Assembly: GCA_049521735.1 (NCBI GenBank)
Contig: JBEKON010000001.1
Location: 98,604-162,603, forward strand
From: Verrucomicrobiota bacterium
GTDB taxonomy: Bacteria > Verrucomicrobiota > Verrucomicrobiia > Limisphaerales > UBA11358
Direction of reading: 5' to 3'
DNA length: 64,000 bases
A model generated the notes under the pieces. It saw only the letters and a list, made by a program, of their open reading frames with translations, was not told where the DNA came from and did not search any database. A program made the position numbers and the translations under genes. Shown here piece after piece: positions 671 through 63,890 of this stretch (its first letter is position 1; each line of letters starts with the position of its first letter).

Positions 671-3600
671 TTGCGCGAAAAATGCGGTGTGCAGGTGCGA
701 TTTCTCCTCGGCCCCGCCGGCAGCGGCAAGACGTTCCTTTGCCTGAAGGAAATCCGTGATGCACTGCGCGAAAATCCTGAAGGACCGCCGCTGATTTTGC
801 TGGCGCCCAAACAGACCACGTTTCAACTCGAACGCCAGTTGCTCACCGGCCATTCGCTTGACGGTTACACGCGACTCCACATTTTTTCATTCGAGCGGCT
901 GGCACGATTTGTTTTTGAAAAATCAAACATCGTGCCGCCTGAACCATTGAGTGACGAAGGCCGTGTGATGGTGTTGCGCGCGCTGTTGATGCGGCACGAA
1001 CATAAACTGAAACTTTTTCGCGGGAGCGCGCGCCGCCCCGGCTTCGCGCAGGAACTCGGCGGATTGTTCAATGAATTCCGGCAGCATCAATTGACGCCGC
1101 TCAAACTCCGCGCCCTTGCCCAACGCCCGGGCTTGCGTCCCGAACTTGGGGACAAGCTGCAAGACCTCGCGCTGCTGGACGACGCTTACGCGAAATGGCT
1201 CTCCGAACACGAATTGCAGGACGCGGATTGTTTGCTGGATACGGCGACCGAAGCGCTGCGCTCCGAACTTAAAACTCAAAACTCAAAACTTAAAATTCAA
1301 GGTTTGTGGTTGGACGGTTTTGCCGAAATGACGCCGCAGGAACTCGGTTTGCTCGCCACCATTCTGCCGTTTTGTGAACGCGCAACGCTCGCGTTCTGCC
1401 TCGACGAATCCCGCGCGCGGAAAGCCGAAAGTTCATGGCTCTCACTTTGGTCAGCCGTTGGCAAAACCTATCAACAATGCCGGTCGCGAATTGAAAATCT
1501 GCCCGATTGCACAATCAGCGTTGAAACACTTAAGCGTGTCCCGGACCAAAACCGCTTTACGGGCAGTCCCGCTTTGCAATTTTTGGAGGCAAACTGGTCG
1601 CAACCAACTCAAAACTTAAAACTTAAAATTCAAAACTCAATCCGGCTCGTTGCCTGTCCAAATCCCGAAGTCGAGGCCGTTCTGGCCGCGCGCGAAATTT
1701 TGGAATTCGTCCGCCGCGGCAATCGCTTTCGCGACTGCGCCGTGCTTGTTCGCAGTCTTGACGCCTATCACAAGCCGCTGGAGCGCGCATTTTGCCGTTA
1801 CGGCATCCCGTTTTTCCTGGACCAGCGCAAATCCGTTTCACATCACCCCCTCGGCGAACTGACCCGCAGTGTGGTCCGCACCGTTGCATTTGACTGGCGG
1901 CAGGAGGATTGGTTCGCCGCGCTGAAAGCCGGGTTTTCGCCGGTGGATGAGGCGGAGATTGACCGGTTGGAAAACGAGGCGCTGGCGCGCGGCTGGCGTG
2001 GCGCGAAATGGCGCGAACCCATTCAAATCGCCGACGATCCACAATTGGAAAAATCACTCGAACGGTTGCGCAAAAAAATCCTGCCACCGTTTGAAAATTT
2101 CGCCAAACAGCTTGTGCGGTTGAAAAATGAACCCACCGGCGGGCAATTGGCCGATGCGTTGCGCGAACTTTGGGGCGAACTCGATGTGGAGAAAACCTTG
2201 GAGCGTTGGAGCCTTGTCGAAACGGAACAATCCGCAATCCATTCGACCGTTTGGGATCAAATGAACTTGTGGCTGGAAAATCTGGCGCTTGCATTTCCAC
2301 GCGAGCCATTGCCGCTGCGCGACTGGCTGCCAATTTTGGAGGCGGGACTTTCGAACCTGACCGTTGGGGTGATTCCGCCCGTGCTCGACGAAGTGCTCGT
2401 CGGCGCGATTGACCGCGCGCGCAACCCCGATTTGAAACTGGCGCTCGTGCTCGGCGTGAATGAATCCGTTTTTCCCGCCGCGCCCGCCGCCCCGACGATT
2501 TTGACCGACGCCGACCGCGATGAATTGAATCCTGCGGTTGCGCTTGGCCCGGATTTGCGCGAGCGGCTGGCGCGCGAGCGTTATTATGGCTACATCACCT
2601 GCACCCGCGCGCGGGAAAAACTCGTTGTGACCTTTGCCCGCCTCGACGCCGATGGCAAAACACTGAACCCGTCGTCGCTCGTCGCACATCTGCGACAGAT
2701 GTTCCCTGAACTTGAAATTGAGGAATTCCACACGGACACCGATTTGGGCGAGGTGGAACATGTGAGTGAAATCGCGCCGATGCTGATGGGAGTTCAGGTA
2801 GGGCGGGCTGTCCCCAGCCCGCCGGAGCGGCGCGATGAGGACATCGCGCCCTACCAACAAAATTGGGCGAGGTTGCTGAAAATTCCAGTGCTCGCAACGC
2901 TGCTCGAAAATTTGCGCCAGTTGCGCGAACCGGATTCGGCGGAATGTTTGTCTCCCGCGCTCGCGGAAAAAATTTACGGCGAGACACTGCAAACGTCGGT
3001 CAGCCGGCTCGAGGAATTTGCCCAGTGCCCGTTTCGATTTTTCGTTCATTCCGGCTTGCGCGCCGAGGAGCGAAAAGTTTTCGAGCTGGATGCGCGCGAA
3101 CGCGGCAGTTTTCAGCACGAAGTTTTGAAAAAATTCCACGACGATTTGACGAAAGAGGGCAAACACTGGCGCGACATTGCGCCGTCGGAAGCGCGCGAAC
3201 GCGTTGGTAAAATTGCCGCCGGACTTGCGCAAGATTATCGCGACGGTTTGTTGCGCGCGGATGACCAAAGCCGGTTTGCCGCGCGCATGCTGACGGAGTC
3301 GCTGCAGGATTTTGTCGAGGTGCTCGTCGCGTGGATGCGCGGGCAGTACCAGTTTGATCCGGCGGTGGCTGAACTCGAATTTGGTTTCAACGTCGGCGGT
3401 GCGCCCGCGTGGGAAATCAATCTCGACGACCGGCACAAGCTCGCGTTGCGCGGACGGATTGACCGGGTTGATTTGTGCCGCGAAACCGGCGACAGCGCGT
3501 TATGCGTGGTGATGGATTACAAGTCCGGCGGCAAGAAGCTCGACGCGATTTTGGTCGAGCACGGCGTGCAATTGCAATTGCTCGCGTATTTGAACGCGCT

Positions 3601-4102
3601 GCGGCATTGGCCAAATCCTCAAACGCTGTTGGAAGCGGCCCGGTTGATTCCAGCGGGTGTTTTCCACGTGAATCTGCGCGGCCAATACGAAAGCGGCAGC
3701 ACGCGCGCCGAGGCGCTGGCCGACGCGGATGAATCACGGCGCGTGGCGTATCGTCATACGGGACGTTTTGATGCGAGTTTTCTGGACAAGTTTGACAACC
3801 GTCCGAATGTGCGGTGCGGCGACCAGTTTAATTATAACCGCAACAACGACGGCTCAATGCGCAAAGGCTCGACTGAAGCGCTGTCGCGCCCGGAATTTGG
3901 AGCGTTGCTTGACCGCGTCGAAATGCAATTGCGCAAGATGGGCCGCGCGATTTTTTCCGGCGCGGCGTCCGTTGACCCGTATCGCAAAGGCAGCGAGACG
4001 CCGTGCGGATTTTGCGATTACCGCGCCGTGTGCCGGATTGATCCGTGGACGCACCGTTATCGCGTGCTGCGCGCGGCGAAAGAAAATTCTCCGTCAACAT
4101 GA
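671..4102 (+). CDS. addB: AddB/RexB-type helicase-nuclease subunit (PD-(D/E)XK nuclease with Fe-S cysteines)
   Basis: 1143-aa ORF; N-terminal Walker A GPAGSGKT; C-terminal CPFRF ... CGFCDYRAVC four-Cys pattern typical of AddB. Start uncertain (TTG 671 or GTG 689/695). No addA-like gene adjacent. Confidence 0.75.
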   Translation: MREKCGVQVRFLLGPAGSGKTFLCLKEIRDALRENPEGPPLILLAPKQTTFQLERQLLTGHSLDGYTRLHIFSFERLARFVFEKSNIVPPEPLSDEGRVMVLRALLMRHEHKLKLFRGSARRPGFAQELGGLFNEFRQHQLTPLKLRALAQRPGLRPELGDKLQDLALLDDAYAKWLSEHELQDADCLLDTATEALRSELKTQNSKLKIQGLWLDGFAEMTPQELGLLATILPFCERATLAFCLDESRARKAESSWLSLWSAVGKTYQQCRSRIENLPDCTISVETLKRVPDQNRFTGSPALQFLEANWSQPTQNLKLKIQNSIRLVACPNPEVEAVLAAREILEFVRRGNRFRDCAVLVRSLDAYHKPLERAFCRYGIPFFLDQRKSVSHHPLGELTRSVVRTVAFDWRQEDWFAALKAGFSPVDEAEIDRLENEALARGWRGAKWREPIQIADDPQLEKSLERLRKKILPPFENFAKQLVRLKNEPTGGQLADALRELWGELDVEKTLERWSLVETEQSAIHSTVWDQMNLWLENLALAFPREPLPLRDWLPILEAGLSNLTVGVIPPVLDEVLVGAIDRARNPDLKLALVLGVNESVFPAAPAAPTILTDADRDELNPAVALGPDLRERLARERYYGYITCTRAREKLVVTFARLDADGKTLNPSSLVAHLRQMFPELEIEEFHTDTDLGEVEHVSEIAPMLMGVQVGRAVPSPPERRDEDIAPYQQNWARLLKIPVLATLLENLRQLREPDSAECLSPALAEKIYGETLQTSVSRLEEFAQCPFRFFVHSGLRAEERKVFELDARERGSFQHEVLKKFHDDLTKEGKHWRDIAPSEARERVGKIAAGLAQDYRDGLLRADDQSRFAARMLTESLQDFVEVLVAWMRGQYQFDPAVAELEFGFNVGGAPAWEINLDDRHKLALRGRIDRVDLCRETGDSALCVVMDYKSGGKKLDAILVEHGVQLQLLAYLNALRHWPNPQTLLEAARLIPAGVFHVNLRGQYESGSTRAEALADADESRRVAYRHTGRFDASFLDKFDNRPNVRCGDQFNYNRNNDGSMRKGSTEALSRPEFGALLDRVEMQLRKMGRAIFSGAASVDPYRKGSETPCGFCDYRAVCRIDPWTHRYRVLRAAKENSPST
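1268..1300 (+). repeat. Heptamer tandem array (AAAACTC/AAAACTT/AAAATTC x4-5), in frame inside addB
   Basis: cttaaaactcaaaactcaaaacttaaaattcaa read directly; encodes ...LKTQNSKLKIQ... Confidence 0.9.
1606..1640 (+). repeat. Second AAAACTY heptamer array, same orientation, in frame inside addB
   Basis: caactcaaaacttaaaacttaaaattcaaaactcaa; encodes ...TQNLKLKIQNS... Confidence 0.9.
2797..2855 (+). repeat. GTAGG...CCTAC double-hairpin palindromic element (type 1), in frame inside addB
   Basis: ggtagg-gcgggctg tcccc agcccgcc-ggagc-ggcgcgatg aggac atcgcgcc-ctacc; translated as VGRAVPSPPERRDEDIAPYQ. Confidence 0.9.
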
Positions 4103-4788
4103 CGCTTCGCGGCAAATCCGATCCGGATTGGTCCTCGCTTGTCGAAGAATGGAAGGCCATGCAGTTGCAGTTACGTGAGCGAATGATTGTCACGCCGCTC
4201 GAACCGCTGCCGGGATTTGTCGCCGGGGCGGATTGTGCGTTTTCCGCCGACAAACAAACCATCTTCGCCGCCGCCGTGGTTTATGACCGTGAAACGCAGC
4301 GCATCATCGAAACCGCCCATGCGGTGCGGCCCGCTGAATTTCCCTACATTCCGACTTTTTTAAGCTTTCGCGAAGGGCCGGCGGTTTTGCAGGCAATCCG
4401 TTCGTTGAAGCATGAATTTGGTGCGATTCTTTTCGACGGTCATGGTTTTGCGCATCCGCGTCGCTGCGGCATCGCATCGCATCTGGCGATTGAATTGGAC
4501 AAGCCCGGCGTTGGCGTCGGCAAAAGCCGGTTGATCGGAACGTTTGGAAAACTTTCGCCAAAGGCGGGGGCAACTGTGCCGCTTATGGACGACAACAAAC
4601 AAATCGGCGTTGTGTTACGGACGCAGAAAGGTATTCGTCCAGTTTTTGTGAGCGTCGGCCATCACGTGGATTTGGCATCCGCTGTCAAACTCGTGTTGGC
4701 CTGTTGCACGTGCTATCGCATTCCAGAACCGACGCGGCAGGCGGACATCGAAGTGGCGAAGTTGAAACGGACGAGCGGTGAGATTTAA
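4099..4788 (+). CDS. nfi: Endonuclease V
   Basis: [48 protein letters not shown] motifs; ATG 4099 overlaps the addB stop (ATGA). The ORF-track start at 4045 is probably too early. Confidence 0.85.
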
Positions 4789-6575
4789 TGATACTCCTGC
4801 AACGTCTTGACGCTGTAGCCGGATTTTTTGAGTGCGGCGATGCCGAGGGCGGCGGCTTTCGCGCCGCTTAGCGTCGTCATGATGGGCGTGCCGGTGTAAA
4901 TCGCTGTCGTGCGGATTTTGACTTCGTCTTCTCGCGGCACCGCGCCGCTCGGCGTGTTGATGACGAGCTGGATTTCCTTGTTCTTGAGCAAATCAATCAC
5001 ATTTGGACGGCCTTCGAGCAATTTAACGATGCGCTCGACTTTCAAGCCCGCCTTTTCCAGCACACCGGCCGTGCCGACTGTCGCCACAAACTCGAATTCC
5101 AAATCGGCAAATTGTTTCGCCACCGCCGCAACATGTTTTTTGTGCGCGTCACTCACGCTGATGAAAACTTTTCCGCTCAACGGCAGCGACGCGCCCGCCG
5201 CTATTTGCGATTTGGCGTAGGCGATGCCCAGGTCGGCATCCAGACCCATGACTTCGCCGGTCGAGCGCATTTCCGGCGAGAGCAAAATATCCTGCCCATG
5301 AAAACGGTTGAACGGGAAAACGGATTCCTTCACCGCCCAATACTTCGGTTTGATTTCCTTGGTGAAACCGAGTTCTTTCAAGGTTTTTCCGGCCATGACT
5401 CTCGCCGCGAGCTTGGCCAGCGGCACGCCAATGGCCTTGCTCACAAACGGCACGGTGCGCGACGCACGCGGGTTCACTTCGAGCACGAAAACCTTTTCGT
5501 CCTTCACGGCGTATTGGACGTTCATCAAGCCGATCACTTCCAATTCGCGCGCCATCGCGTGAGTGTAATCGCGAATTGTCTCGATGACTTTTTTGGAAAG
5601 TGTGTGCGGCGGCAAAACCATCGCTGCATCGCCGGAATGAATACCGGCGAATTCGATGTGCTCCAATATTCCTCCGATGACAATTGTGCCGTCGCCCGGT
5701 TTTTTGGAATGGCCGACGTCGGCGATGCAATCCACGTCCACTTCGGTCGCATCTTCCAAAAACCGGTCCACGAGCACCGGACGTTCGGGCGATGCCTCGA
5801 CCGCGAAACGCATGTAATGCTGCAATTCGGCGTCGGAATAGACAATTTGCATCGCGCGACCGCCGAGCACGAAACTTGGCCGGACCAAAATCGGGTAGCC
5901 AAGCTTTTGGGCGACTTCGAGCGCCTCCGTTTCGTTCGTGGCAACACCGTTGGGCGGCTGCGGAATTTTCAGTTTGTCGAGCATCGCGGCGAAGAATTTG
6001 CGGTCTTCGGCGATTTCGATGTTCTGTGGTGAAGTGCCGATGATGTTGACGCCATTTTTCTGGAGGCCGAGCGCAAGGTTCAGCGGGGTTTGCCCGCCGA
6101 ATTGCGCGATGGCGCCCCAGCATTGCTCGCGTTCGTAAATGTGCAGCACGTCTTCGAGCGTGAGCGGTTCGAAGAAAAGCTGGTCGCTTGTGTCGTAATC
6201 GGTCGAAACGGTTTCGGGATTCGAGTTGACCATGATGGTTTCGAAACCGTCCTCCTTGAGTGCGAACGCGGCGTGCACGCAGCAGTAATCAAACTCAATT
6301 CCCTGCCCGATGCGGTTCGGTCCGCCGCCGAGAATCATCACTTTTTTCTTCGGCGTCCTTTTGATTTCGTCATCGCCGCGATCATAAGTCGAATAATAAT
6401 AAGGCGTGTAAGCCTCAAACTCGGCGGCGCAGGTGTCCACGAGTCGATAGCTGGGCACAAGGCCGAGTTTTTTCCGTAGCGCGCGGACTTCGTCCTCAGT
6501 TTGGCCGGTTAAATGGGCGATTTGCCGGTCGGAAAATCCCAAACCTTTCGCTTTGCTCAAAGTGTCATGTGTCAT
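4785..6575 (-). CDS. carB: Carbamoyl-phosphate synthase large subunit, C-terminal half only (split carB)
   Basis: 596 aa. From memory it aligns with E. coli CarB from about residue 470 onward: [57 protein letters not shown], second ATP-grasp, MGS-like tail. No N-terminal half in this window. Confidence 0.85.
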
Positions 6576-6590
6576 GTGCCATGTGCCACG
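6562..6590. repeat. Left arm of long hairpin (GTGTCAT/GTGCCAT heptamers x4) enclosing the four-helix-bundle gene
   Basis: gtgtcatgtgtcatgtgccatgtgccacg. Hand pairing with 6978-7006 gives 22 Watson-Crick + 3 G-T of 29 positions. Contains the carB-C start codon and the four-helix-bundle ORF stop. Confidence 0.8.
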
Positions 6591-6967
6591 TTTGCGCTTT
6601 GGGCGCGCCGTGTCAGGGAACGTTTGAAACCGCCGATGAGGGCTTTGGTTTTGGCTGCTTGTGTATGATGTTCCCGAAACACAGGTTCATTAATATAGCC
6701 ATTGTCGAGCGCCACATAAAGCAGAGACTGAACTTCAACAGCTGAACGTCTGGCGATTCCTAAAAAACGGGCGAATTCGACCTTTGATTCACAATCGAAA
6801 CCTTCGGCAATGTTGGCCATGGTTGAAACCGCTGCGCGTTGAATTTGATCCTTCAATCCAAAATCCCGCGCCAAACCACCATCACCAGTCAAATGATAAA
6901 CACCACGCGTCAATTTCCGCGCTTCCTGCCATGCTTGAATATCTTCAAATTTGCTGATTAAAGGCAT
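6572..6967 (-). CDS. Four-helix-bundle protein (23S rRNA intervening-sequence protein family)
   Basis: [19 protein letters not shown]...[18 protein letters not shown]...[23 protein letters not shown] matches my memory of this family; start taken at the internal ATG 6967. Confidence 0.8.
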
Positions 6968-6977
6968 GGTGATAAAA

Positions 6978-7007
6978 CCTGATACGTGACACTTGATACA
7001 TGACACG
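6978..7007. repeat. Right arm of the hairpin enclosing the four-helix-bundle gene
   Basis: cctgatacgtgacacttgatacatgacacg, imperfect reverse complement of 6562-6590. Confidence 0.8.
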
Positions 7008-7097
7008 AAAGAGTAAGCCGGAAAAATCTGCGCGTGTCGAGCGGGGAGTGTTCAAATCCGCTTGCCGACCGCACAGGTTTGCGTTACGAAACGGCGG

Positions 7098-8426: not shown

Positions 8427-8511
8427 GCGCATATGGTGGAATTGGCAGACACGCTACTTTGAGGTGGTAGTGGGGCAACCCGTGCAGGTTCAAGTCCTGC
8501 TATGCGCACCA
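8427..8511 (+). tRNA. tRNA-Leu (anticodon GAG), CCA encoded
   Basis: Hand fold: acceptor GCGCATA/TATGCGC, anticodon stem CTACT/GGTAG with loop TTGAGGT, long variable arm, T-arm GCAGG-TTCAAGT-CCTGC. Layout parallels E. coli tRNA-Leu. Confidence 0.9.
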
Positions 8512-9618: not shown

Positions 9619-9626
9619 CAGGTGTA

Positions 9627-9655
9627 GTTTCAAGTTTCAGGTTTCAAGTTTCAAG
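9627..9655. repeat. Intergenic heptamer array (GTTTCAA/GTTTCAG x4)
   Basis: gtttcaagtttcaggtttcaagtttcaag between the ribE start and the ribD stop. Confidence 0.9.
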
Positions 9656-9693
9656 CAGACAAATTGTCCCCGAAAAATGCGATGGTTTTGAAT

Positions 9694-10896
9694 TTAATCA
9701 ACACGTGCCGTCAGCAACAAATCCGGTCCGAGCCGCCTCCACTCGACGTTGCGAAGCCGGAGCGCCTCCGCCAGACTTTTCGCGCCGCCACCCGCGACCG
9801 CTTTGCGTGAGTCGCGTCCGCCCAGAATTTTTGGCGCGTAAAAAAACGCGATGCGATGTGCAAAACCGCCGAGCAGAAACGATGCGTTCACTTCGCCGCC
9901 GCCTTCGACCAGCAGGCTGGTAATATTTTGTGAGCCGAGTTTTTGCAACAGCCAACGCAGGTCAATTTGTTGGTAGGGCACGGTCTCCGCACCGTGCCGC
10001 GGCGCGCTGGGGACAGCGCGCCCTACCTTGATTATGGGCGCGACAAGAACATTCACGCGCCCGGCCAAAGCCGCGACGCGACTTTTCGGCGCGGATTTGC
10101 TCACGACAATCGTCGTCAGCGCCGCAAATTTGTCAGTTACAACTTTTGCCTTCAACGGTGTTCGTGCCATCGAATCCAAAATAATCCGGCGGAGCCGCAA
10201 ATTTTTGTTCTGACTTCTGACTCCTGACTTCTGCCTTCTGAATGTCAGGCTTGGGTTGTCCGCTAGAATCGTGTTGATGCCGACGAGAATCGCGTCGTTG
10301 CCTTGACGCAATTTCATGCCGTGCGCCCGAGCCTGCTTGCCGGTAATCCATTTCGACTCGCCACTCGCCGTGGCGATTTTCCCATCGAGCGTCATTGCCG
10401 CCTTCACGGTCACGAACGGCGTGCGGTGAACAATCCAATGGTTGAATGGTTCATTAAGCCGCTCACATTCATCGGCGAGTCTGGTAGGGACGGCTCGCCG
10501 AGCCGTCCGGTCATCACGGCGCAATAACCCTACCTCTGTTACTGCAATCCCGGCACGTTTCAAAATCCTGAAAGCACGACCGGCATGTTTCGGATTTGGA
10601 TCCGTCGCGCCGACAACCACGCGTTTGATTCCCGCCGCGATGATGGCGTCCGTGCAAGGTGGCGTGCGGCTGTGTGAGCTGCACGGTTCGAGCGTCACGT
10701 AAAGCGTTGCGCCGCGCGGCGAGTGCCCGCGTTTCTGCGCATCGCGGAGCGCTTCGATTTCCGCGTGCGGCAGACCCGCACGCCGGTGCCAGCCGCGCCC
10801 GATGATTTTTCCGCCTTTCGCCAATACCGCGCCGACCATCGGATTGGGCGAAGTCATGCCGTAGCCGCGTTGCGCCAAACTCAAAGCCAGGCGCAT
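9694..10896 (-). CDS. ribD: Bifunctional riboflavin biosynthesis deaminase/reductase RibD, carrying three in-frame repeat insertions
   Basis: MRLALSLAQRGYGMTSPNPMVGAVL, HAEIEAL, LEPC..H..TPPC deaminase motifs plus reductase domain. Start moved to ATG 10896 to clear the ftsY stop. Confidence 0.9.
   Translation of the reverse strand: MRLALSLAQRGYGMTSPNPMVGAVLAKGGKIIGRGWHRRAGLPHAEIEALRDAQKRGHSPRGATLYVTLEPCSSHSRTPPCTDAIIAAGIKRVVVGATDPNPKHAGRAFRILKRAGIAVTEVGLLRRDDRTARRAVPTRLADECERLNEPFNHWIVHRTPFVTVKAAMTLDGKIATASGESKWITGKQARAHGMKLRQGNDAILVGINTILADNPSLTFRRQKSGVRSQNKNLRLRRIILDSMARTPLKAKVVTDKFAALTTIVVSKSAPKSRVAALAGRVNVLVAPIIKVGRAVPSAPRHGAETVPYQQIDLRWLLQKLGSQNITSLLVEGGGEVNASFLLGGFAHRIAFFYAPKILGGRDSRKAVAGGGAKSLAEALRLRNVEWRRLGPDLLLTARVD
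9972..10027 (-). repeat. Type-1 GTAGG...CCTAC double-hairpin element, in frame inside ribD
   Basis: Gene-strand reading ggtagg-gcgcgctg tcccc agcgcgc-...-ggcacggtg cggag accgtgcc-ctacc = VGRAVPSAPRHGAETVPYQ. Confidence 0.9.
10210..10249 (-). repeat. Heptamer array (CTGACTT/CTGACTC/CTGCCTT x5) in frame inside ribD
   Basis: ctgacttctgactcctgacttctgccttctgaatgtcagg; encodes RRQKSGVRSQNKN on the gene strand. Confidence 0.9.
10483..10534 (-). repeat. GTAGG...CCTAC palindromic element (variant) in frame inside ribD
   Basis: ggtagggacggctcgccgagccgtccggtcatcacggcgcaataaccctacc; gene strand reads VGLLRRDDRTARRAVPT. Confidence 0.85.
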
Positions 10897-13236: not shown

Positions 13237-13417
13237 AAACTTAAGTTTAACAGTATGACCTGTCCAAAGTCCATCCGCCTTCGCAAGGCTACGGCGAGAT
13301 TAAAAGTCTAAAGCTCGCCTCGGCGGAGCCTTCAGCGAAGCCTGGGTCCAAAGTCAAACAATGCGACGCAACTTTGGACATTGGACATCGAACATTGGAC
13401 TTGTTAAAACTTCGCGC

Positions 13418-13801: not shown

Positions 13802-13813
13802 GCGCCGTTGCAA

Positions 13814-13845
13814 CTTAAAACTCAAAATTCATAATTCAAAATTAA
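13814..13845 (+). repeat. Intergenic AAAACTC-type heptamer array, same family as 1268 and 1606
   Basis: cttaaaactcaaaattcataattcaaaattaa. Confidence 0.85.
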
Positions 13846-20072: not shown

Positions 20073-20164
20073 AGTGTCACGTATCACGTATCATGTGTCA
20101 CGCAGCCGAATGCCAAATACCCGACGGACGACACTTGGCACATGACACACGACACCTGACACTT
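20073..20164. repeat. 'Empty' heptamer-arm hairpin of the same family as 6562/6978
   Basis: agtgtcacgtatcacgtatcatgtgtcacg - 27-nt loop - gacacttggcacatgacacacgacacctgacact. Arms share gtgtcacgtatca and tggcacatgacac strings with the carB-adjacent cassette. Confidence 0.85.
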
Positions 20165-37891: not shown

Positions 37892-39949
37892 ATGCGTCCA
37901 CAAATCCAAGACAATCCGCTGGCTGCACCCGTAACGACATTGTGGGGTGTCGGCGCGGAACGCGCGGCGCAACTCGCACGCCTCGACATTCACACCATCG
38001 AGGATTTGTTGCTGCACCGGCCGCGGCGTTATGAAGATCGCCGTCATTTTCGCAGTATTGCCGGGTTGACCCGTGACGAAGCGGCGACCACGCGCGGCAC
38101 GATTGTCACGCTCGGCCTCAGACGTTTTCGCGGCGGCAACAAATCCGTTTTTGAAATCATTCTCGATGATGGCAGCGCCCGGTTGCATTGCCGCTGGTGG
38201 AATCTGCCGTTCATGCAAAATTATTTTGCGGTTGGCGACGAGATTTTCGTTTACGGCAAGCTCAATGAAACCAAGCCGCGCATCATTGACCATCCTGAAA
38301 CCGAAGTCATCGAGGGCGGCGAGGAGAGCTTCATCCACATCAACCGCATCGCGCCGGTGTATCCGCTCACCGAAGGCCTGCCGCAACGCTGGTTGCGCGG
38401 GCTGATCTGGCGGACGTTGGAAAAATTCGAGCGGCACATCGCCGAACCGTGGCCGGGAAATGTAGGACAGGTGTCCCGCCTGTCTCCATCTTCAAGTTCT
38501 AAAAATCAGGGACAGGCTGGAAGCCTGTCCTACCCGACGCGCGCCAACGCCATTCACATGACGCATTTCCCCGAAGAGCTGGCCGATGTGGAAATCGCAC
38601 GGCGACGGCTGGCGTTGGATGAATTCATTGCGTTGCAGCGTGACATGCAGCTTCGCCGGAAAAATTTCGAGGCCAAATCGCGCGCATTACCGTGCGGTGG
38701 TGACAATCGTTTGATGAAGCCGTTTCTGGCACGGCTCGGCTTCAAGCTCACCGACGCCCAGACGAAAGTCCTCCGCGAAATCCGGGCGGACATGAGCGGG
38801 GCGCATCCGATGCGGCGGCTGCTGCAAGGCGACGTCGGTTCAGGCAAGACGGTGGTTGCCGCCTGCGCGGCGCTCATGGCTTTGGAAAGCGGGTTCAATG
38901 TTGCGCTCATGGCGCCGACGGAAATCCTTGCGGAACAACATTTCAACAATTTTTCGCGCTGGTTTGGACCGCTCGGCGTGAAGGTGAAATTGCAAACAGG
39001 TTCACACAGGAGTAAGGAACAAGAAGTAAGGCGCAAGACCCTCGCAGCAAAACCCTTACTCCTTACTCCTTGCTCCTTGACCATCGGCACTCACGCCCTC
39101 ATCGAGTCGGGATTTGTATTGGAGAAATTGGGTTTGGTCATTATTGACGAGCAGCACAAGTTTGGCGTGGCACAGCGCGAACAGATCGTGCGTAAAGGCC
39201 GCTATCCGCATTTGCTCGTGATGACGGCTACCCCGATTCCGCGCACGCTCGGCCTTACGCTTTACGGCGACCTTGATATTTCGGTAATTGACCAGATGCC
39301 CGGTGGACGCGGCAGGATAAAAACTTTTCTACGCACGACCGAAAAATTGCCTGAAGTTTGGAAATTCATCCGCGAAAAACTGGCTGCCGGACGGCAGGCA
39401 TACGTCGTTTATCCGCGCGTGGAGGATTCAGGACCAAATGGGTTGAAAGCGGTGAAAAAGGAATTTGAAAATTTGAAGAAGCTGCTCGCGCCATTCCATG
39501 TCGGGTTGATGCACGGCCGGTTGAAAGGGCGGGAGAAGGACGAAGTAATGACAGCGTTTCGCGCGAACCAAATTCAGGCGCTCGTCGCGACGACGCTGGT
39601 TGAAGTGGGTTTGGATGTGCCGAACGCAACGATCATGCTGGTTGAAAATGCGGAGCGGTTCGGTCTGGCGCAATTGCATCAATTACGCGGGCGCATCGGG
39701 CGCGGCGCGCATGAGTCGCACTGCATTTTGATTTCCGACGCGAAGAATGAGGATGCAGGGCGGCGCTTGAAAGTTTTGGAAGAGACGACGGACGGGTTTC
39801 GCATTGCCGAGGTGGATTTGAAATTGCGCGGGCCGGGCGAATTGCTCGGCCAGCGGCAAAGCGGCCTGCCGAAATTCCGCTTCGGCAATCTGGCCGGGGA
39901 TTTGGATTTGATCCGGTTTGCGCGCGAGTTGGCGGCGCAAATAATTTAG
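37892..39949 (+). CDS. recG: ATP-dependent DNA helicase RecG, carrying two in-frame repeat segments
   Basis: LLLHRPRRYEDR wedge-domain start, GDVGSGKTVVA, DEQHKFGV, MTATPIPRTL, HGRLK..EK, QLHQLRGRIGRG. Confidence 0.9.
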   Translation: MRPQIQDNPLAAPVTTLWGVGAERAAQLARLDIHTIEDLLLHRPRRYEDRRHFRSIAGLTRDEAATTRGTIVTLGLRRFRGGNKSVFEIILDDGSARLHCRWWNLPFMQNYFAVGDEIFVYGKLNETKPRIIDHPETEVIEGGEESFIHINRIAPVYPLTEGLPQRWLRGLIWRTLEKFERHIAEPWPGNVGQVSRLSPSSSSKNQGQAGSLSYPTRANAIHMTHFPEELADVEIARRRLALDEFIALQRDMQLRRKNFEAKSRALPCGGDNRLMKPFLARLGFKLTDAQTKVLREIRADMSGAHPMRRLLQGDVGSGKTVVAACAALMALESGFNVALMAPTEILAEQHFNNFSRWFGPLGVKVKLQTGSHRSKEQEVRRKTLAAKPLLLTPCSLTIGTHALIESGFVLEKLGLVIIDEQHKFGVAQREQIVRKGRYPHLLVMTATPIPRTLGLTLYGDLDISVIDQMPGGRGRIKTFLRTTEKLPEVWKFIREKLAAGRQAYVVYPRVEDSGPNGLKAVKKEFENLKKLLAPFHVGLMHGRLKGREKDEVMTAFRANQIQALVATTLVEVGLDVPNATIMLVENAERFGLAQLHQLRGRIGRGAHESHCILISDAKNEDAGRRLKVLEETTDGFRIAEVDLKLRGPGELLGQRQSGLPKFRFGNLAGDLDLIRFARELAAQII
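38462..38533 (+). repeat. Type-2 GTAGGACAGG...CCTGTCCTAC element (72 nt) in frame inside recG
   Basis: gtaggacaggtgtcccgcctgtctccatct...cagggacaggctggaagcctgtcctac = VGQVSRLSPSSSSKNQGQAGSLSY. Confidence 0.9.
39009..39076 (+). repeat. Heptamer-arm hairpin (GTAAGGA/ACAAGAA vs CCTTACT x2) in frame inside recG
   Basis: ggagtaaggaacaagaagtaaggcgcaag - loop - cccttactccttactccttgctcc; encodes RSKEQEVRRKTLAAKPLLLTPCS. Confidence 0.85.
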
Positions 39950-61684: not shown

Positions 61685-63706
61685 TCAATCATTTTTCGCC
61701 GGCGCGTTGATGGACTGAAATGATTCCCGCCATGGTTGGTGGTTTCTGTAAAGTTGCAGTCGCCGTCGCATATCTGCAACGCTTTGGCTCATGCCTTTAG
61801 CGGCTGCGAGTTCGACAGCTTTTTGGGTCACTTCCTGAGCGTCATCGAAATGGCCGGCTTCCGCGCAGGCCATGCCTAGCGCGTCGAGCACGAACGGCAG
61901 TGTGCTATCGCTCAAAACGTTCGCTTTGACTGCGAACACCAGCGCGGTCTTCCCGTCGCGAATTTGAGGATTTTCATCGGCGGCCAGCACCTGGGCGGTG
62001 TAGGCGAGGATTTGAAAATTGTCCGGGTCAATCCGCAATGCTTCGCGCAGCCGGCCAACCGCCTCGGCATCACGGCCCTGTTTGAGCAGCGCCTTGCCCA
62101 TTTGAAAATACGGCCAGGGATAGGCCGGATCGAGCCGCGCGGCGTTGGTAAATTCATTCATGGCCTCGTCGAAACGCCCAAGTTCGACCAGCACGATGCC
62201 AAGCCCGTCGTGCAAGGCCGGCGGCTTCGGATCCAGCCGCACAGCTTCGCGGTATTCGGACAGCGCCTCCCCCGGTCGGCCAAGGTTGTCGAGCAGATTG
62301 CCGAGATTGTTGTGAATCTGGTAACGCCCCGGCATGAGGCGCGCCGCTTCACGATATTCCGCCAGCGCCCGGGTCAATTTGCCCTGTTGTTCGAGCGCGA
62401 CGCCGAGGTTGAAGTGAGCGATGCCGTTGTCTTTCGTCACGGCGAGCGCGTGTGTGAACAGCGATTCGCTATCGTGCCAAAAGCGCAATTGATTTTCGGT
62501 GAGAATCACACACGCTGTGAGAATTGCGGCGGCCGCGAACGTGATGACAATTTTCGGAATTTGAAATCGGTCTGCCAAATCACGGACGCCGAAGGCAACG
62601 GCCAGGAACACGCCGATGGAGGGAATGTAGGTGTAACGGTCGGCCAGCGCCGCGCCGCCGACCTGGATCAGGCCGATGACCGGCACCAGCGTCCCCAAAA
62701 ACCAAAGCCAGCCGACGAGCAGATACGGACGCGTGCGTCGTGTCTTCCAAACACAGCAGGAAACCACAATTAAAAATACGGTCGCCGCGAAGAATTGTGT
62801 CCGAAGCAAGGGTGTGATCGGATACAGGACCACCAGGTTTGCCGGCCAAAGCATTTTCAGAAAATAGTCCAGGTAGGATGTCACGGCGTTGGCGAGCCGA
62901 TAACGCAAAGGAACCAGTTCCAGTGGGATAATGGCGCCACCACCATGCTGTGCGAAAACGGTTACGATGCAGGAAACCGCGGCAAGCAGAAAAAACGGCC
63001 ACTTTTCCAAAGCGAGAAGGATGAAGGATGAAGAATGAAAGTTGAAAGCCGGAATTGGCGGCGCCGCGCTGTTTTCGGGATTTGAAATTGGAAATTGGGA
63101 ATTGGAAATTCGCCGGAGCGGCCAGAAATCGAGCAACAACATCACGAATGGCAGCGTGACAAGCATGGGTTTCGCCATGAGGCCGAGCGCGAAGAAAATC
63201 AAGGCGAACCAAAAGCTGCGGCGGCAGTTTTCCTTTGCGTATTTCGTGTAGCTTAAAAGCGCGAGCAGGGCGAAGAACGTACTCAGGACGTCCTTGCGTT
63301 CCGAAATCCACGCAACAGATTCGACGTGCAGCGGATGCCACGTGAACAACGCGGCAACGCATGCGCTAGGCCACAATGCATTCGTCAGTCGGAACAGCAG
63401 CACCAAAAGCAAAACCGCATTGGCTACGTGAAACAGAACGTTGACGGAATGATGTGCGCCAGCATTGAGGCCGAAAAGTTCGCAGTCCGTCATATGGGAG
63501 AGCCAAGTGACGGGATGCCAGTTACTGGCATGTTGCGTGGTGTAAGCCCATTTGATTCCCGTCCACGTCAAACCTTTTTGGACGACATGATTTTTCGTAA
63601 CGTAATCGTCGTCGTCATAGACCAGGAAGCCGTAATGGCATACGGGCAGATAAACCAGCAGCGTGATAAGTGCGAGCAACAGGCCAATGAGGCGCGGGCG
63701 GGACAT
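61685..63706 (-). CDS. Membrane protein with PMT/ArnT-like N-terminal multi-TM domain and C-terminal TPR repeats; carries an in-frame repeat insertion
   Basis: N-terminus YDDDDYV..N, about 10 TM segments, then TPR units (AEYREAARLMPG..., EYREAVRLDP...). Confidence 0.7.
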   Translation of the reverse strand: MSRPRLIGLLLALITLLVYLPVCHYGFLVYDDDDYVTKNHVVQKGLTWTGIKWAYTTQHASNWHPVTWLSHMTDCELFGLNAGAHHSVNVLFHVANAVLLLVLLFRLTNALWPSACVAALFTWHPLHVESVAWISERKDVLSTFFALLALLSYTKYAKENCRRSFWFALIFFALGLMAKPMLVTLPFVMLLLDFWPLRRISNSQFPISNPENSAAPPIPAFNFHSSSFILLALEKWPFFLLAAVSCIVTVFAQHGGGAIIPLELVPLRYRLANAVTSYLDYFLKMLWPANLVVLYPITPLLRTQFFAATVFLIVVSCCVWKTRRTRPYLLVGWLWFLGTLVPVIGLIQVGGAALADRYTYIPSIGVFLAVAFGVRDLADRFQIPKIVITFAAAAILTACVILTENQLRFWHDSESLFTHALAVTKDNGIAHFNLGVALEQQGKLTRALAEYREAARLMPGRYQIHNNLGNLLDNLGRPGEALSEYREAVRLDPKPPALHDGLGIVLVELGRFDEAMNEFTNAARLDPAYPWPYFQMGKALLKQGRDAEAVGRLREALRIDPDNFQILAYTAQVLAADENPQIRDGKTALVFAVKANVLSDSTLPFVLDALGMACAEAGHFDDAQEVTQKAVELAAAKGMSQSVADMRRRLQLYRNHQPWRESFQSINAPAKND
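63018..63112 (-). repeat. Two adjacent heptamer arrays flanking a GC palindrome, in frame in the PMT/TPR gene
   Basis: aaggatgaaggatgaagaatgaaagttgaaag ... ggcggcgccgc ... ggatttgaaattggaaattgggaattggaaattcg; encodes ISNSQFPISNPENSAAPPIPAFNFHSSSFIL. Confidence 0.85.
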
Positions 63707-63890
63707 GGGATTCTTTTGTATGCGATTTTTTCGCGCAGCCAGAATGGAGACAACCATTTATTTTTCCAATAAAAAGTCGTTGCATTTTTCCCGGCAATGG
63801 ATAGAAATTCACCATCAGGCAGGAGAAATTGCTCGACCTCTTGTCATTTGGCCGCTACATCGGTTCCTCACGACGGGGTGAATTATCGGT

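Follow-up and report, generated by a model that had tools for sequence, protein, structure and literature searches.

A probable intervening-sequence-type cassette outside rRNA: a four-helix-bundle gene between inverted heptamer arrays at the start of a split carB gene

We analysed a 64,000-nt stretch of DNA (hereafter the window) from an uncultured Verrucomicrobiota bacterium (GenBank assembly GCA_049521735.1, contig JBEKON010000001.1, positions 98,604 to 162,603), in which a 445-bp element on the minus strand (6562-7006) consists of a 131-codon gene between two inverted arrays, or arms, of four GTRYCAN heptamers each. The gene encodes a four-helix-bundle protein of the S23p (23S_rRNA_IVP) family, which was first found in intervening sequences (IVSs) of 23S rRNA, and comparison with homologous loci shows that arms and gene form a discrete arm-gene-arm unit that is gained and lost whole and is shared across phyla along with its repeat unit. 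Gene-less arrays and hairpins with the same types of repeat are present in cassette-carrying genomes as well. We consider it likely that the element is an IVS-type, selfish S23p cassette residing outside rRNA and belonging to a pan-bacterial arm-gene-arm family that has been gained, lost and exchanged between phyla.

A gene enclosed by an imperfect heptamer stem

In the sense of the gene, the 5′ arm (6978-7006, minus strand) reads GTGTCAT GTATCAA GTGTCAC GTATCAG, the plus strand being the reverse complement of these four units and one further G; it is followed by a 10-nt leader (6968-6977, minus) and by the ATG of the four-helix-bundle gene (6572-6967, minus; 131 amino acids plus stop). The 3′ arm (6562-6590, minus) reads CGTGGCAC ATGGCAC ATGACAC ATGACAC in the same sense, or GTGTCAT GTGTCAT GTGCCAT GTGCCAC G on the plus strand. 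The cassette gene ends within this arm, which holds its final codons and TGA, and the gene downstream, the C-terminal half of a split carB (carB-C), has its ATG there too; the two genes overlap in an ATGA at 6572-6575. An earlier reading of this DNA without database searches (the sequence-only reading) had placed arms at 6562-6590 and 6978-7006, paired at 22 Watson-Crick plus 3 G-T of 29 positions around a loop of about 390 nt. We recovered the same arms, with 22 Watson-Crick and 3 G-T pairs on the plus strand, 22 and 2 on the gene's sense strand, and a loop of 387 nt.

The arm duplex has an energy of -30.1 kcal/mol, a value reached by none of 1000 one-arm shuffles (mean -9.4 ± 3.1) and matched by 9 of 3000 pairs of 29-mers spaced 416 nt apart in the window; the complementarity, which the same reading had left to be compared with shuffled arms, is thus better than chance. 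Folding of 6550-7020, also proposed there, places the long-range stem in both the minimum free energy and the centroid structure, although the z-score of the whole region is an unremarkable -0.42. Because the 390-nt open reading frame (ORF) dominates that figure it is uninformative, and we used the arm-only duplex statistics instead.

As in an IVS, inverted repeats able to form a long stem enclose the ORF, and tandem heptamers adjoin it as they do in the Coxiella IVS; as inverted heptamer arrays, the arms are also terminal inverted repeats of the kind that marks insertion sequences and MITEs (miniature transposable elements with inverted repeats). The flanks of the cassette are carB-C and a hypothetical gene, rather than a helix of 23S or 16S rRNA. 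No rRNA was found in the window by Rfam, and conserved 23S motif clusters are absent from all fetched loci. Since it does not lie in rRNA, the cassette is not a strict member of the rRNA IVS class, despite its protein, stem and heptamers.

The loop had been taken for essentially a four-helix-bundle ORF of 131 codons, and profile matches and a structure model bear this out. The ORF at 6572-6967 matches PF05635 with an E-value of 2.4e-29 (102 bits, cut-off 33.8) and TIGR02436 with 6e-27 (94 bits, cut-off 24), and its AlphaFold model is a four-helix bundle (pLDDT 90.9) with TM-scores of 0.80/0.91 against 2GSC (XCC0516) and 0.75/0.87 against 2RLD (BT_0352). By sequence and structure the protein groups with these two S23p proteins, whose family has had crystal structures since 2006 and, to our knowledge, no assigned function. 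An identical protein is encoded on 14 peat-metagenome contigs (the longest 339 kb); relatives number in the thousands, with about 75% identical ones in Anaerolineae/Chloroflexota. PADLOC gave no defence-protein model match for the cassette. Among Pfam families the protein matches PF05635 only, and its four-helix-bundle fold is not that of a HUH (IS200/IS605-like) transposase.

The fold also allows a quite different origin, namely a remnant of a diversity-generating retroelement whose Avd-type factor has lost its reverse transcriptase. The model superposes, more distantly, on the Avd protein of these retroelements (bAvd), with which it has the pentamer-forming four-helix-bundle fold in common, and Avd binds nucleic acid within the retroelement's ribonucleoprotein, a precedent for such recognition by a protein of this fold. 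Unlike Avd systems, however, the cassette has no template or variable repeats, its sequence identity to Avd is 8-9%, and no reverse transcriptase family is found among the genes called within 10 kb on either side; with a protein that groups with 2GSC and 2RLD, and with heptamer arms that are no feature of such retroelements, we find a remnant of this kind hardly credible.

Occupied and empty sites at a split carB gene

The gene downstream (4785-6575, minus; 596 amino acids) is identified by Pfam as the C-terminal half of the carbamoyl-phosphate synthase large subunit; its ORF begins within the oligomerisation domain, and the N-terminal half of carB was not found in the 64-kb window. With TGA and ATG overlapping inside the 3′ arm, it is the arm's heptamers that encode the start of CarB-C, the residues M-T-H-D-T. 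A promoter-like element (7007-7041, minus) borders the 5′ arm on its outer side, with TCGACA at 7035-7040 and, 17 nt apart, CTTACT at 7012-7017; it is conserved in an alignment of occupied and empty sites (A2) and may function as a promoter.

Cassettes lie directly upstream of carB-C in four further genomes (L011, L015, L023 and L054), where the other neighbours differ and the arms are orthologous to those of the window. By scanning metagenomes for relatives of the CarB-C N-terminus, we obtained nine loci with CarB-C 82-90% identical that are split at the same residue and have neither the cassette gene nor the heptamers; in relatives of at most 73% identity, carB is mostly intact. Three of these empty sites (L097, L100 and L102) have the promoter-like element in common with the occupied sites, and in alignment A2 the two kinds of site differ by a block of 390-510 nt whose edges fall exactly at the two arms. 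Since close relatives have the same split without gene and repeats, arms and gene are one insertion unit, and, in keeping with the mobile cassette that the sequence-only reading had proposed, arms and ORF are gained or lost together.

Two insertion points can be distinguished: one directly after GGCTTACTCTTTC, where the 5′ arm stands in the window, L011 and L015, and one after the native leader and first two codons (gcgccgATGCCA...), where it stands in L023 and L054. The proteins at the two points belong to different clades of the family tree, so the cassette most likely entered this region of roughly 30 nt twice, at different points. A CATGAC unit of the 3′ arm provides the carB-C start codon, ATG, in all five occupied loci. 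The window in this way shows a route to fixation: the leader and first codons of an essential gene half have given way to the cassette, which now supplies the start codon. We rejected the idea that the cassette itself had split carB, since cassette-free split genes stand at the base of the split clade in the CarB-C tree and the split therefore preceded the cassette; carB is split at the same residue also in more distant lineages (L141, L152 and L164).

The same layout around homologous genes

Homologous loci, 80 in all and 79 of them usable, were collected from species-representative genomes in many phyla. In each we looked for the best ungapped stem joining the 150 nt upstream of the start to the sequence around the stop, and windows displaced by 700 nt served as controls. 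An arm score of at least 30 was obtained in 54 of the 79 loci and in none of 74 displaced controls, and a score of at least 26 in 62 of 79 loci against 1 of 74 controls. Most of the PF05635 genes examined are therefore bracketed by inverted heptamer arrays, and the test that had been set for refuting the finding, that other genes of this kind lack flanking inverted repeats, comes out in its favour. The combination of stem and ORF outside rRNA and beside a protein gene, previously noted for this one site, is real and general across many phyla.

Strong arms (n=58) have a period of 7 in 51 cases, 8 in six and 9 in one. Six bases of the repeat unit are fairly constant and one varies (conservation within arrays, from the first heptamer position to the last, 0.98, 0.98, 0.87, 0.87, 0.80, 0.89 and 0.68); the polarity is fixed, and both arms have the same unit. 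From locus to locus the units vary, GTGTCAN, GTTCCAN, GTGCGAN, GTTCTTG, GTCCGAN and GTCACGN being among those found, and the unit follows the clade of the protein rather than the phylum of the host. GTGTCAN accompanies the protein clade of the window's cassette in both Verrucomicrobiota and Chloroflexota, where more distant proteins have other units; unit distance climbs from 0.97 to 2.8 mismatches of 7 as the proteins grow more distant (Mantel r 0.29, p ≤ 0.001), and in each of two genomes with two cassettes, the two carry different units. A universal heptamer start with GT was considered and dropped: it is true of the 80 loci, partly through the choice of phase, and fails for the GGGAATC of Xanthomonas and the GACAGAT of Coxiella.

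For about half of 48 loci, the downstream ORF has its first ATG or GTG no more than 20 nt away from the end of the 3′ arm. Downstream neighbours are co-oriented with the cassette in 52 of 59 cases and upstream neighbours in 52 of 61, modestly above what is usual for adjacent bacterial genes.

In Xanthomonas, Stenotrophomonas and Dokdonella (L180-L184), a gene of the XCC0516 type lies between accB and accC, with GGGAATC GGGAGTG GAGAATC GGGAATC on its 5′ side and CATTCCC CATTCTC GACTCCC TATTCCC on its 3′ side, the last unit adjoining the ATG of accC. This is the same architecture as that of the window's cassette, in a culturable organism, and accB-XCC0516-accC thereby offers an experimental system for which a solved structure and a list of the arrays have been published. 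About 186 (GGGAATC)n arrays, mostly of four units and 70 of them in convergent pairs, have been described in X. campestris with their function unknown and without mention of XCC0516 (Rehm et al., PMC4692102); the arms of the Xanthomonas cassette belong to this heptamer family, which is dispersed through that genome.

An explanation by chance, in which generic slippage microsatellites merely happen to flank the gene in inverted orientation, can appeal to the frequency of period-7 arrays in the window and to the attribution of bacterial heptamer over-representation to slippage (cited in PMC4692102). It is refuted by the contrast between loci and displaced controls and by the prevailing period of 7; fixed polarity, one unit on both sides, variability concentrated at the seventh position and the replication of the layout in Xanthomonadales speak against it as well, and we regard chance as extremely improbable.

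Gene-less arrays and hairpins of the same units

Tandem arrays were called at a relaxed threshold (15 of 18 positions matching) and a strict one (18 of 21). The relaxed threshold gave eleven period-7 arrays in the window, with period 7 the only over-represented tandem period, and the strict threshold gave seven period-7 arrays, none of the other periods from 4 to 11 and a single period-12 array. Outside cassettes, the density of period-7 arrays is 15.9 per 100 kb in the window and 15.1 in the flanks of the 80 cassette loci, against 2.7 in unrelated carB loci, where periods 6, 8 and 9 are equally common. Orphan heptamer arrays are thus about five-fold enriched in cassette-carrying genomes, and 26 of 76 have the same unit as their local cassette, where permutation expects 4.2 and gives at most 10. 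Gene-less hairpins with the unit of a nearby cassette are present in three of the loci, from Chloroflexota and Planctomycetota (L018 at 3911-3979, L044 at 6452-6557 and L084 at 5774-5870).

The window holds one such solo hairpin of the GTGTCAN family at 20073-20164 (plus strand; arms 20073-20102 and 20130-20164 around a 27-nt loop), in the spacer between a DUF1015 gene and a cation-efflux gene. It had been described as an inverted sister of the cassette arms, and this relationship holds: two 13-mers, GTGTCACGTATCA and TGGCACATGACAC, are common to the hairpin and the arms in inverted orientation, and the pattern GTRYCAYGTRYCAY occurs six times in the window (0.03 expected), confined to cassette and solo hairpin. 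Folded as the earlier reading had advised, 20073-20164 gives -31.7 kcal/mol with a z-score of -4.16. The hairpin also fits the suggestion of a cargo-free version of the cassette in being lineage-specific: in three relatives, whose DUF1015 protein is 84-87% identical, the orthologous spacer lacks a heptamer hairpin and has other sequences instead. Within the loop of the window's hairpin lies a mini-ORF of 11 codons (ATG CCA ... GGC ACA TGA, MPNTRRTTLGT) that begins with M-P and ends with G-T-stop, as the cassette gene does, which gives only a hint that the solo hairpin is an internally deleted cassette.

The loop (20103-20129) also holds GCCGAATGCCA, identical to the native carB-C leader and start in the cassette-free L100, L102 and L097; this identity may reflect either homology or coincidence. 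In the relatives L177-L179, GC-rich palindromes fill the spacer where the window has the heptamer hairpin.

So many gene-less copies invite the view that the hairpin is primary and the gene a passenger, with heptamer hairpins spreading in the manner of MITEs, or by slippage and recombination, and an ORF being captured in some of the loops. For its one cassette the window has about 10 gene-less hairpins and arrays, the Xanthomonas genome has its approximately 186 arrays (PMC4692102), and the hairpins in L018, L044 and L084 add to the tally. A passenger gene sits badly, however, with a repeat unit that co-varies with the protein clade across phyla and with a protein so well conserved that its Verrucomicrobiota and Chloroflexota versions are about 75% identical, and none of the nine empty carB-C sites has a hairpin-only intermediate; we judge this account to be quite improbable.

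RNA helix or repeated motif

Over the arms of the 58 strong loci, symmetric scoring of 1982 positions gave 82% Watson-Crick pairs. Selection clearly keeps inverted arrays of a six-base motif, with pairing potential following from this and being partly maintained, and the pattern of substitutions suggests that the repeated motifs are selected rather than an RNA helix as such. A sense-strand RNA signature was looked for and not found, G.U and A.C being equal under this scoring.

Several results weigh against an IVS-type mobile cassette as we propose it. In the arms, G.T and T.G together number 95 and A.C and C.A 92 of the 1982 positions, so the wobble excess expected of a sense-strand RNA helix is missing. 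Each carB-linked arm is closer to its orthologue than to its partner, with mismatches inherited rather than compensated, and compensatory covariation is absent among the five carB-linked cassettes. At the variable seventh position 43% of cases are paired, an estimate inflated by the choice of register, where 26% would be expected (the other positions pair in 87%). In Xanthomonadales the variant units on one side are mirrored on the other, and between genera there is one compensated pair; pairing is therefore maintained at least in part, with neither an RNA nor a DNA hairpin preferred. As for mobility, no target-site duplication is visible in the alignment of empty and occupied sites, whose genomes are diverged and in which 15-45 nt of native sequence have been replaced; no transposase was seen with the cassette, viral contigs yielded no relatives of its protein, and the 64-kb window contains one cassette and no near-identical second copy. 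Rfam has no family for the cassette, the sole gathering-level match in the window being a tRNA gene, and an open-access literature search returned no link between the protein family and heptamer arms outside rRNA, although an earlier description is possible.

The arms could instead form a regulatory RNA structure of the host, whose stem controls or processes the operon transcript, by RNase III cleavage or by blocking the carB-C start, and whose protein is an ordinary co-transcribed gene, with nothing mobile about either. The position of both arms downstream of a conserved promoter-like element agrees with this, as do the carB-C ATG inside the 3′ arm, the closeness of the downstream start codon in about half of 48 loci and the cleavage of the Coxiella IVS stem by RNase III (PMC4990558). 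The comparative results point the other way: relatives have the same split carB-C and promoter-like region without a cassette, there are two independent insertion points, the same type of cassette stands beside unrelated genes in different phyla, and the arms show no G.U excess and little compensation. On balance we think a host regulatory RNA unlikely.

Relation to known systems and a possible mechanism

Among the closest counterparts of the cassette are the ORF-containing IVSs of 23S rRNA, such as those of Coxiella burnetii (helix 45) and Leptospira, which resemble it in the S23p/PF05635 protein, in an inverted-repeat stem around an ORF that is sense to the host transcript, and in 5′ heptamers with a degenerate last base and a variable copy number. 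In Coxiella, three GACAGAT heptamers and a degenerate fourth precede the S23p ORF, strains differ in their number, and the first repeat is where RNase III cuts (Warrier et al., PMC4990558), so that heptamers and ORF together tie the rRNA IVSs to the cassettes outside rRNA. IVSs with an ORF are regarded as selfish and horizontally acquired (PMC4990558). Unlike them, the cassette is located in the leader and start region of a protein gene, to which it donates the start codon; the Coxiella protein is decaying, whereas the cassette protein is highly conserved, and excision by RNase III, known for rRNA IVSs, would apply to the cassette by analogy only.

The arms also resemble the unexplained heptamer arrays of Xanthomonas, Nostoc, Beggiatoaceae and other groups, which are made of 7-nt tandem units, about four per array, often in convergent pairs near start codons and with one poorly conserved position. 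Published examples include GGGGAYT arrays in Nostoc (PMC4692102) and TAACTGA arrays near start codons in Beggiatoaceae, cyanobacteria and Bacteroidetes (MacGregor, PMC4679880). Earlier studies connected such arrays to no gene, whereas the arrays analysed here are tied to a gene of the S23p family. The cyanobacterial STRR repeats are further heptamer arrays.

In the REP/RAYT system (REPtrons), inverted copies of a short dispersed repeat stand on either side of a gene, an arrangement that marked this gene as the factor acting on the repeat; RAYT is a HUH tyrosine transposase. The cassette gene, in the window as in Xanthomonas, likewise stands between inverted copies of a repeat that is dispersed through its genome, but it encodes a four-helix bundle that is no known recombinase and has no known catalytic motif, and its repeats are tandem heptamer arrays rather than single palindromes. 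Rickettsia palindromic elements are short palindromic repeats that are translated in frame inside conserved protein genes and have no associated gene; in-frame heptamers in the recG, addB and ribD genes of the window resemble them, although sequences and host differ.

As a selfish cassette, the element could work as follows. It would have no promoter of its own and would be transcribed by read-through from a host promoter; in the transcript its arms would pair into an imperfect 29-bp stem around the ORF, a substrate of the RNase III type as in rRNA IVSs. Translation of the cassette gene would open the stem and couple the initiation of carB-C to it. Placed on the start codon of an essential gene, the cassette may be locked in by the cost of its loss, which would explain why it has long been inherited vertically both here and in the accBC operon. 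The protein, a presumed pentamer, may recognise its own heptamer arrays as cis sites; such binding is suggested by the strict linkage of gene and arrays, by their co-variation and by analogy with the ribonucleoprotein role of Avd and with other genes that stand between their own dispersed repeats.

The gene is connected to the heptamers in three ways: arrays bracket it, the unit changes with the protein lineage, and gene-less arrays are enriched in the same genomes. Two old puzzles, a protein family without a function and heptamer arrays without a cause, may therefore have one answer, and the layout of the cassette may explain the 7-base repeats that are scattered through such genomes. We offer one form of this tentatively, as a possibility that we rate well below an even chance: the S23p pentamer would be the trans-acting factor of bacterial heptamers, each lineage having its own 6+1-nt unit; cassettes would be the autonomous form of an unrecognised class of mobile elements with no known transposase; and rRNA IVSs, the GGGAATC repeats of Xanthomonas, repeats of the STRR type and in-frame hairpins would be insertions or gene-less derivatives.

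Other heptamer arrays and features of the window

In recG (37892-39949), an in-frame heptamer hairpin of GTAAGGN / CCTTACT units at 39006-39082 (plus strand; fold z-score -3.8) lies just before the conserved IGTHAL motif. Pure insertion was rejected for this hairpin: the region is only 5 amino acids longer than in solved RecG structures, so native codons were replaced and not simply added to, and this net gain of 5 amino acids by replacement differs from the simple addition made by Rickettsia palindromic elements. An addB-like ORF (671-4102) contains two (AACTCAA)n arrays in frame, at 1264-1300 and 1604-1640 (both plus strand); these direct arrays translate as SELKTQNSKLKIQ and PTQNLKLKIQNSI and occupy loops at which the L011 orthologue differs in sequence and length. 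Arrays of (GAAGGAT)n and (ATTGGAA)n at 63014-63112 (plus) are in frame in a 690-amino-acid ORF on the minus strand (61685-63757).

Two arrays lie at ribD, (TTCTGAC)n at 10207-10241 (plus; in frame in this minus-strand gene) and (AGTTTCA)n at 9625-9656 (plus), the latter at the junction with the riboflavin-synthase gene. Two others frame a glyoxalase gene, with (TTGGACA)n upstream at 13371-13395 (plus) and (AACTCAA / AATTCAA)n downstream at 13812-13843 (plus). The cognate cassettes of window arrays with other units, if any, lie outside the window. At 9972-10027, ribD also contains a GC-rich composite palindrome with GTAGGG...CCCTAC ends that resembles GTAG-tagged REP elements, and the tRNA gene matched by Rfam is located at 8427-8508 on the plus strand.

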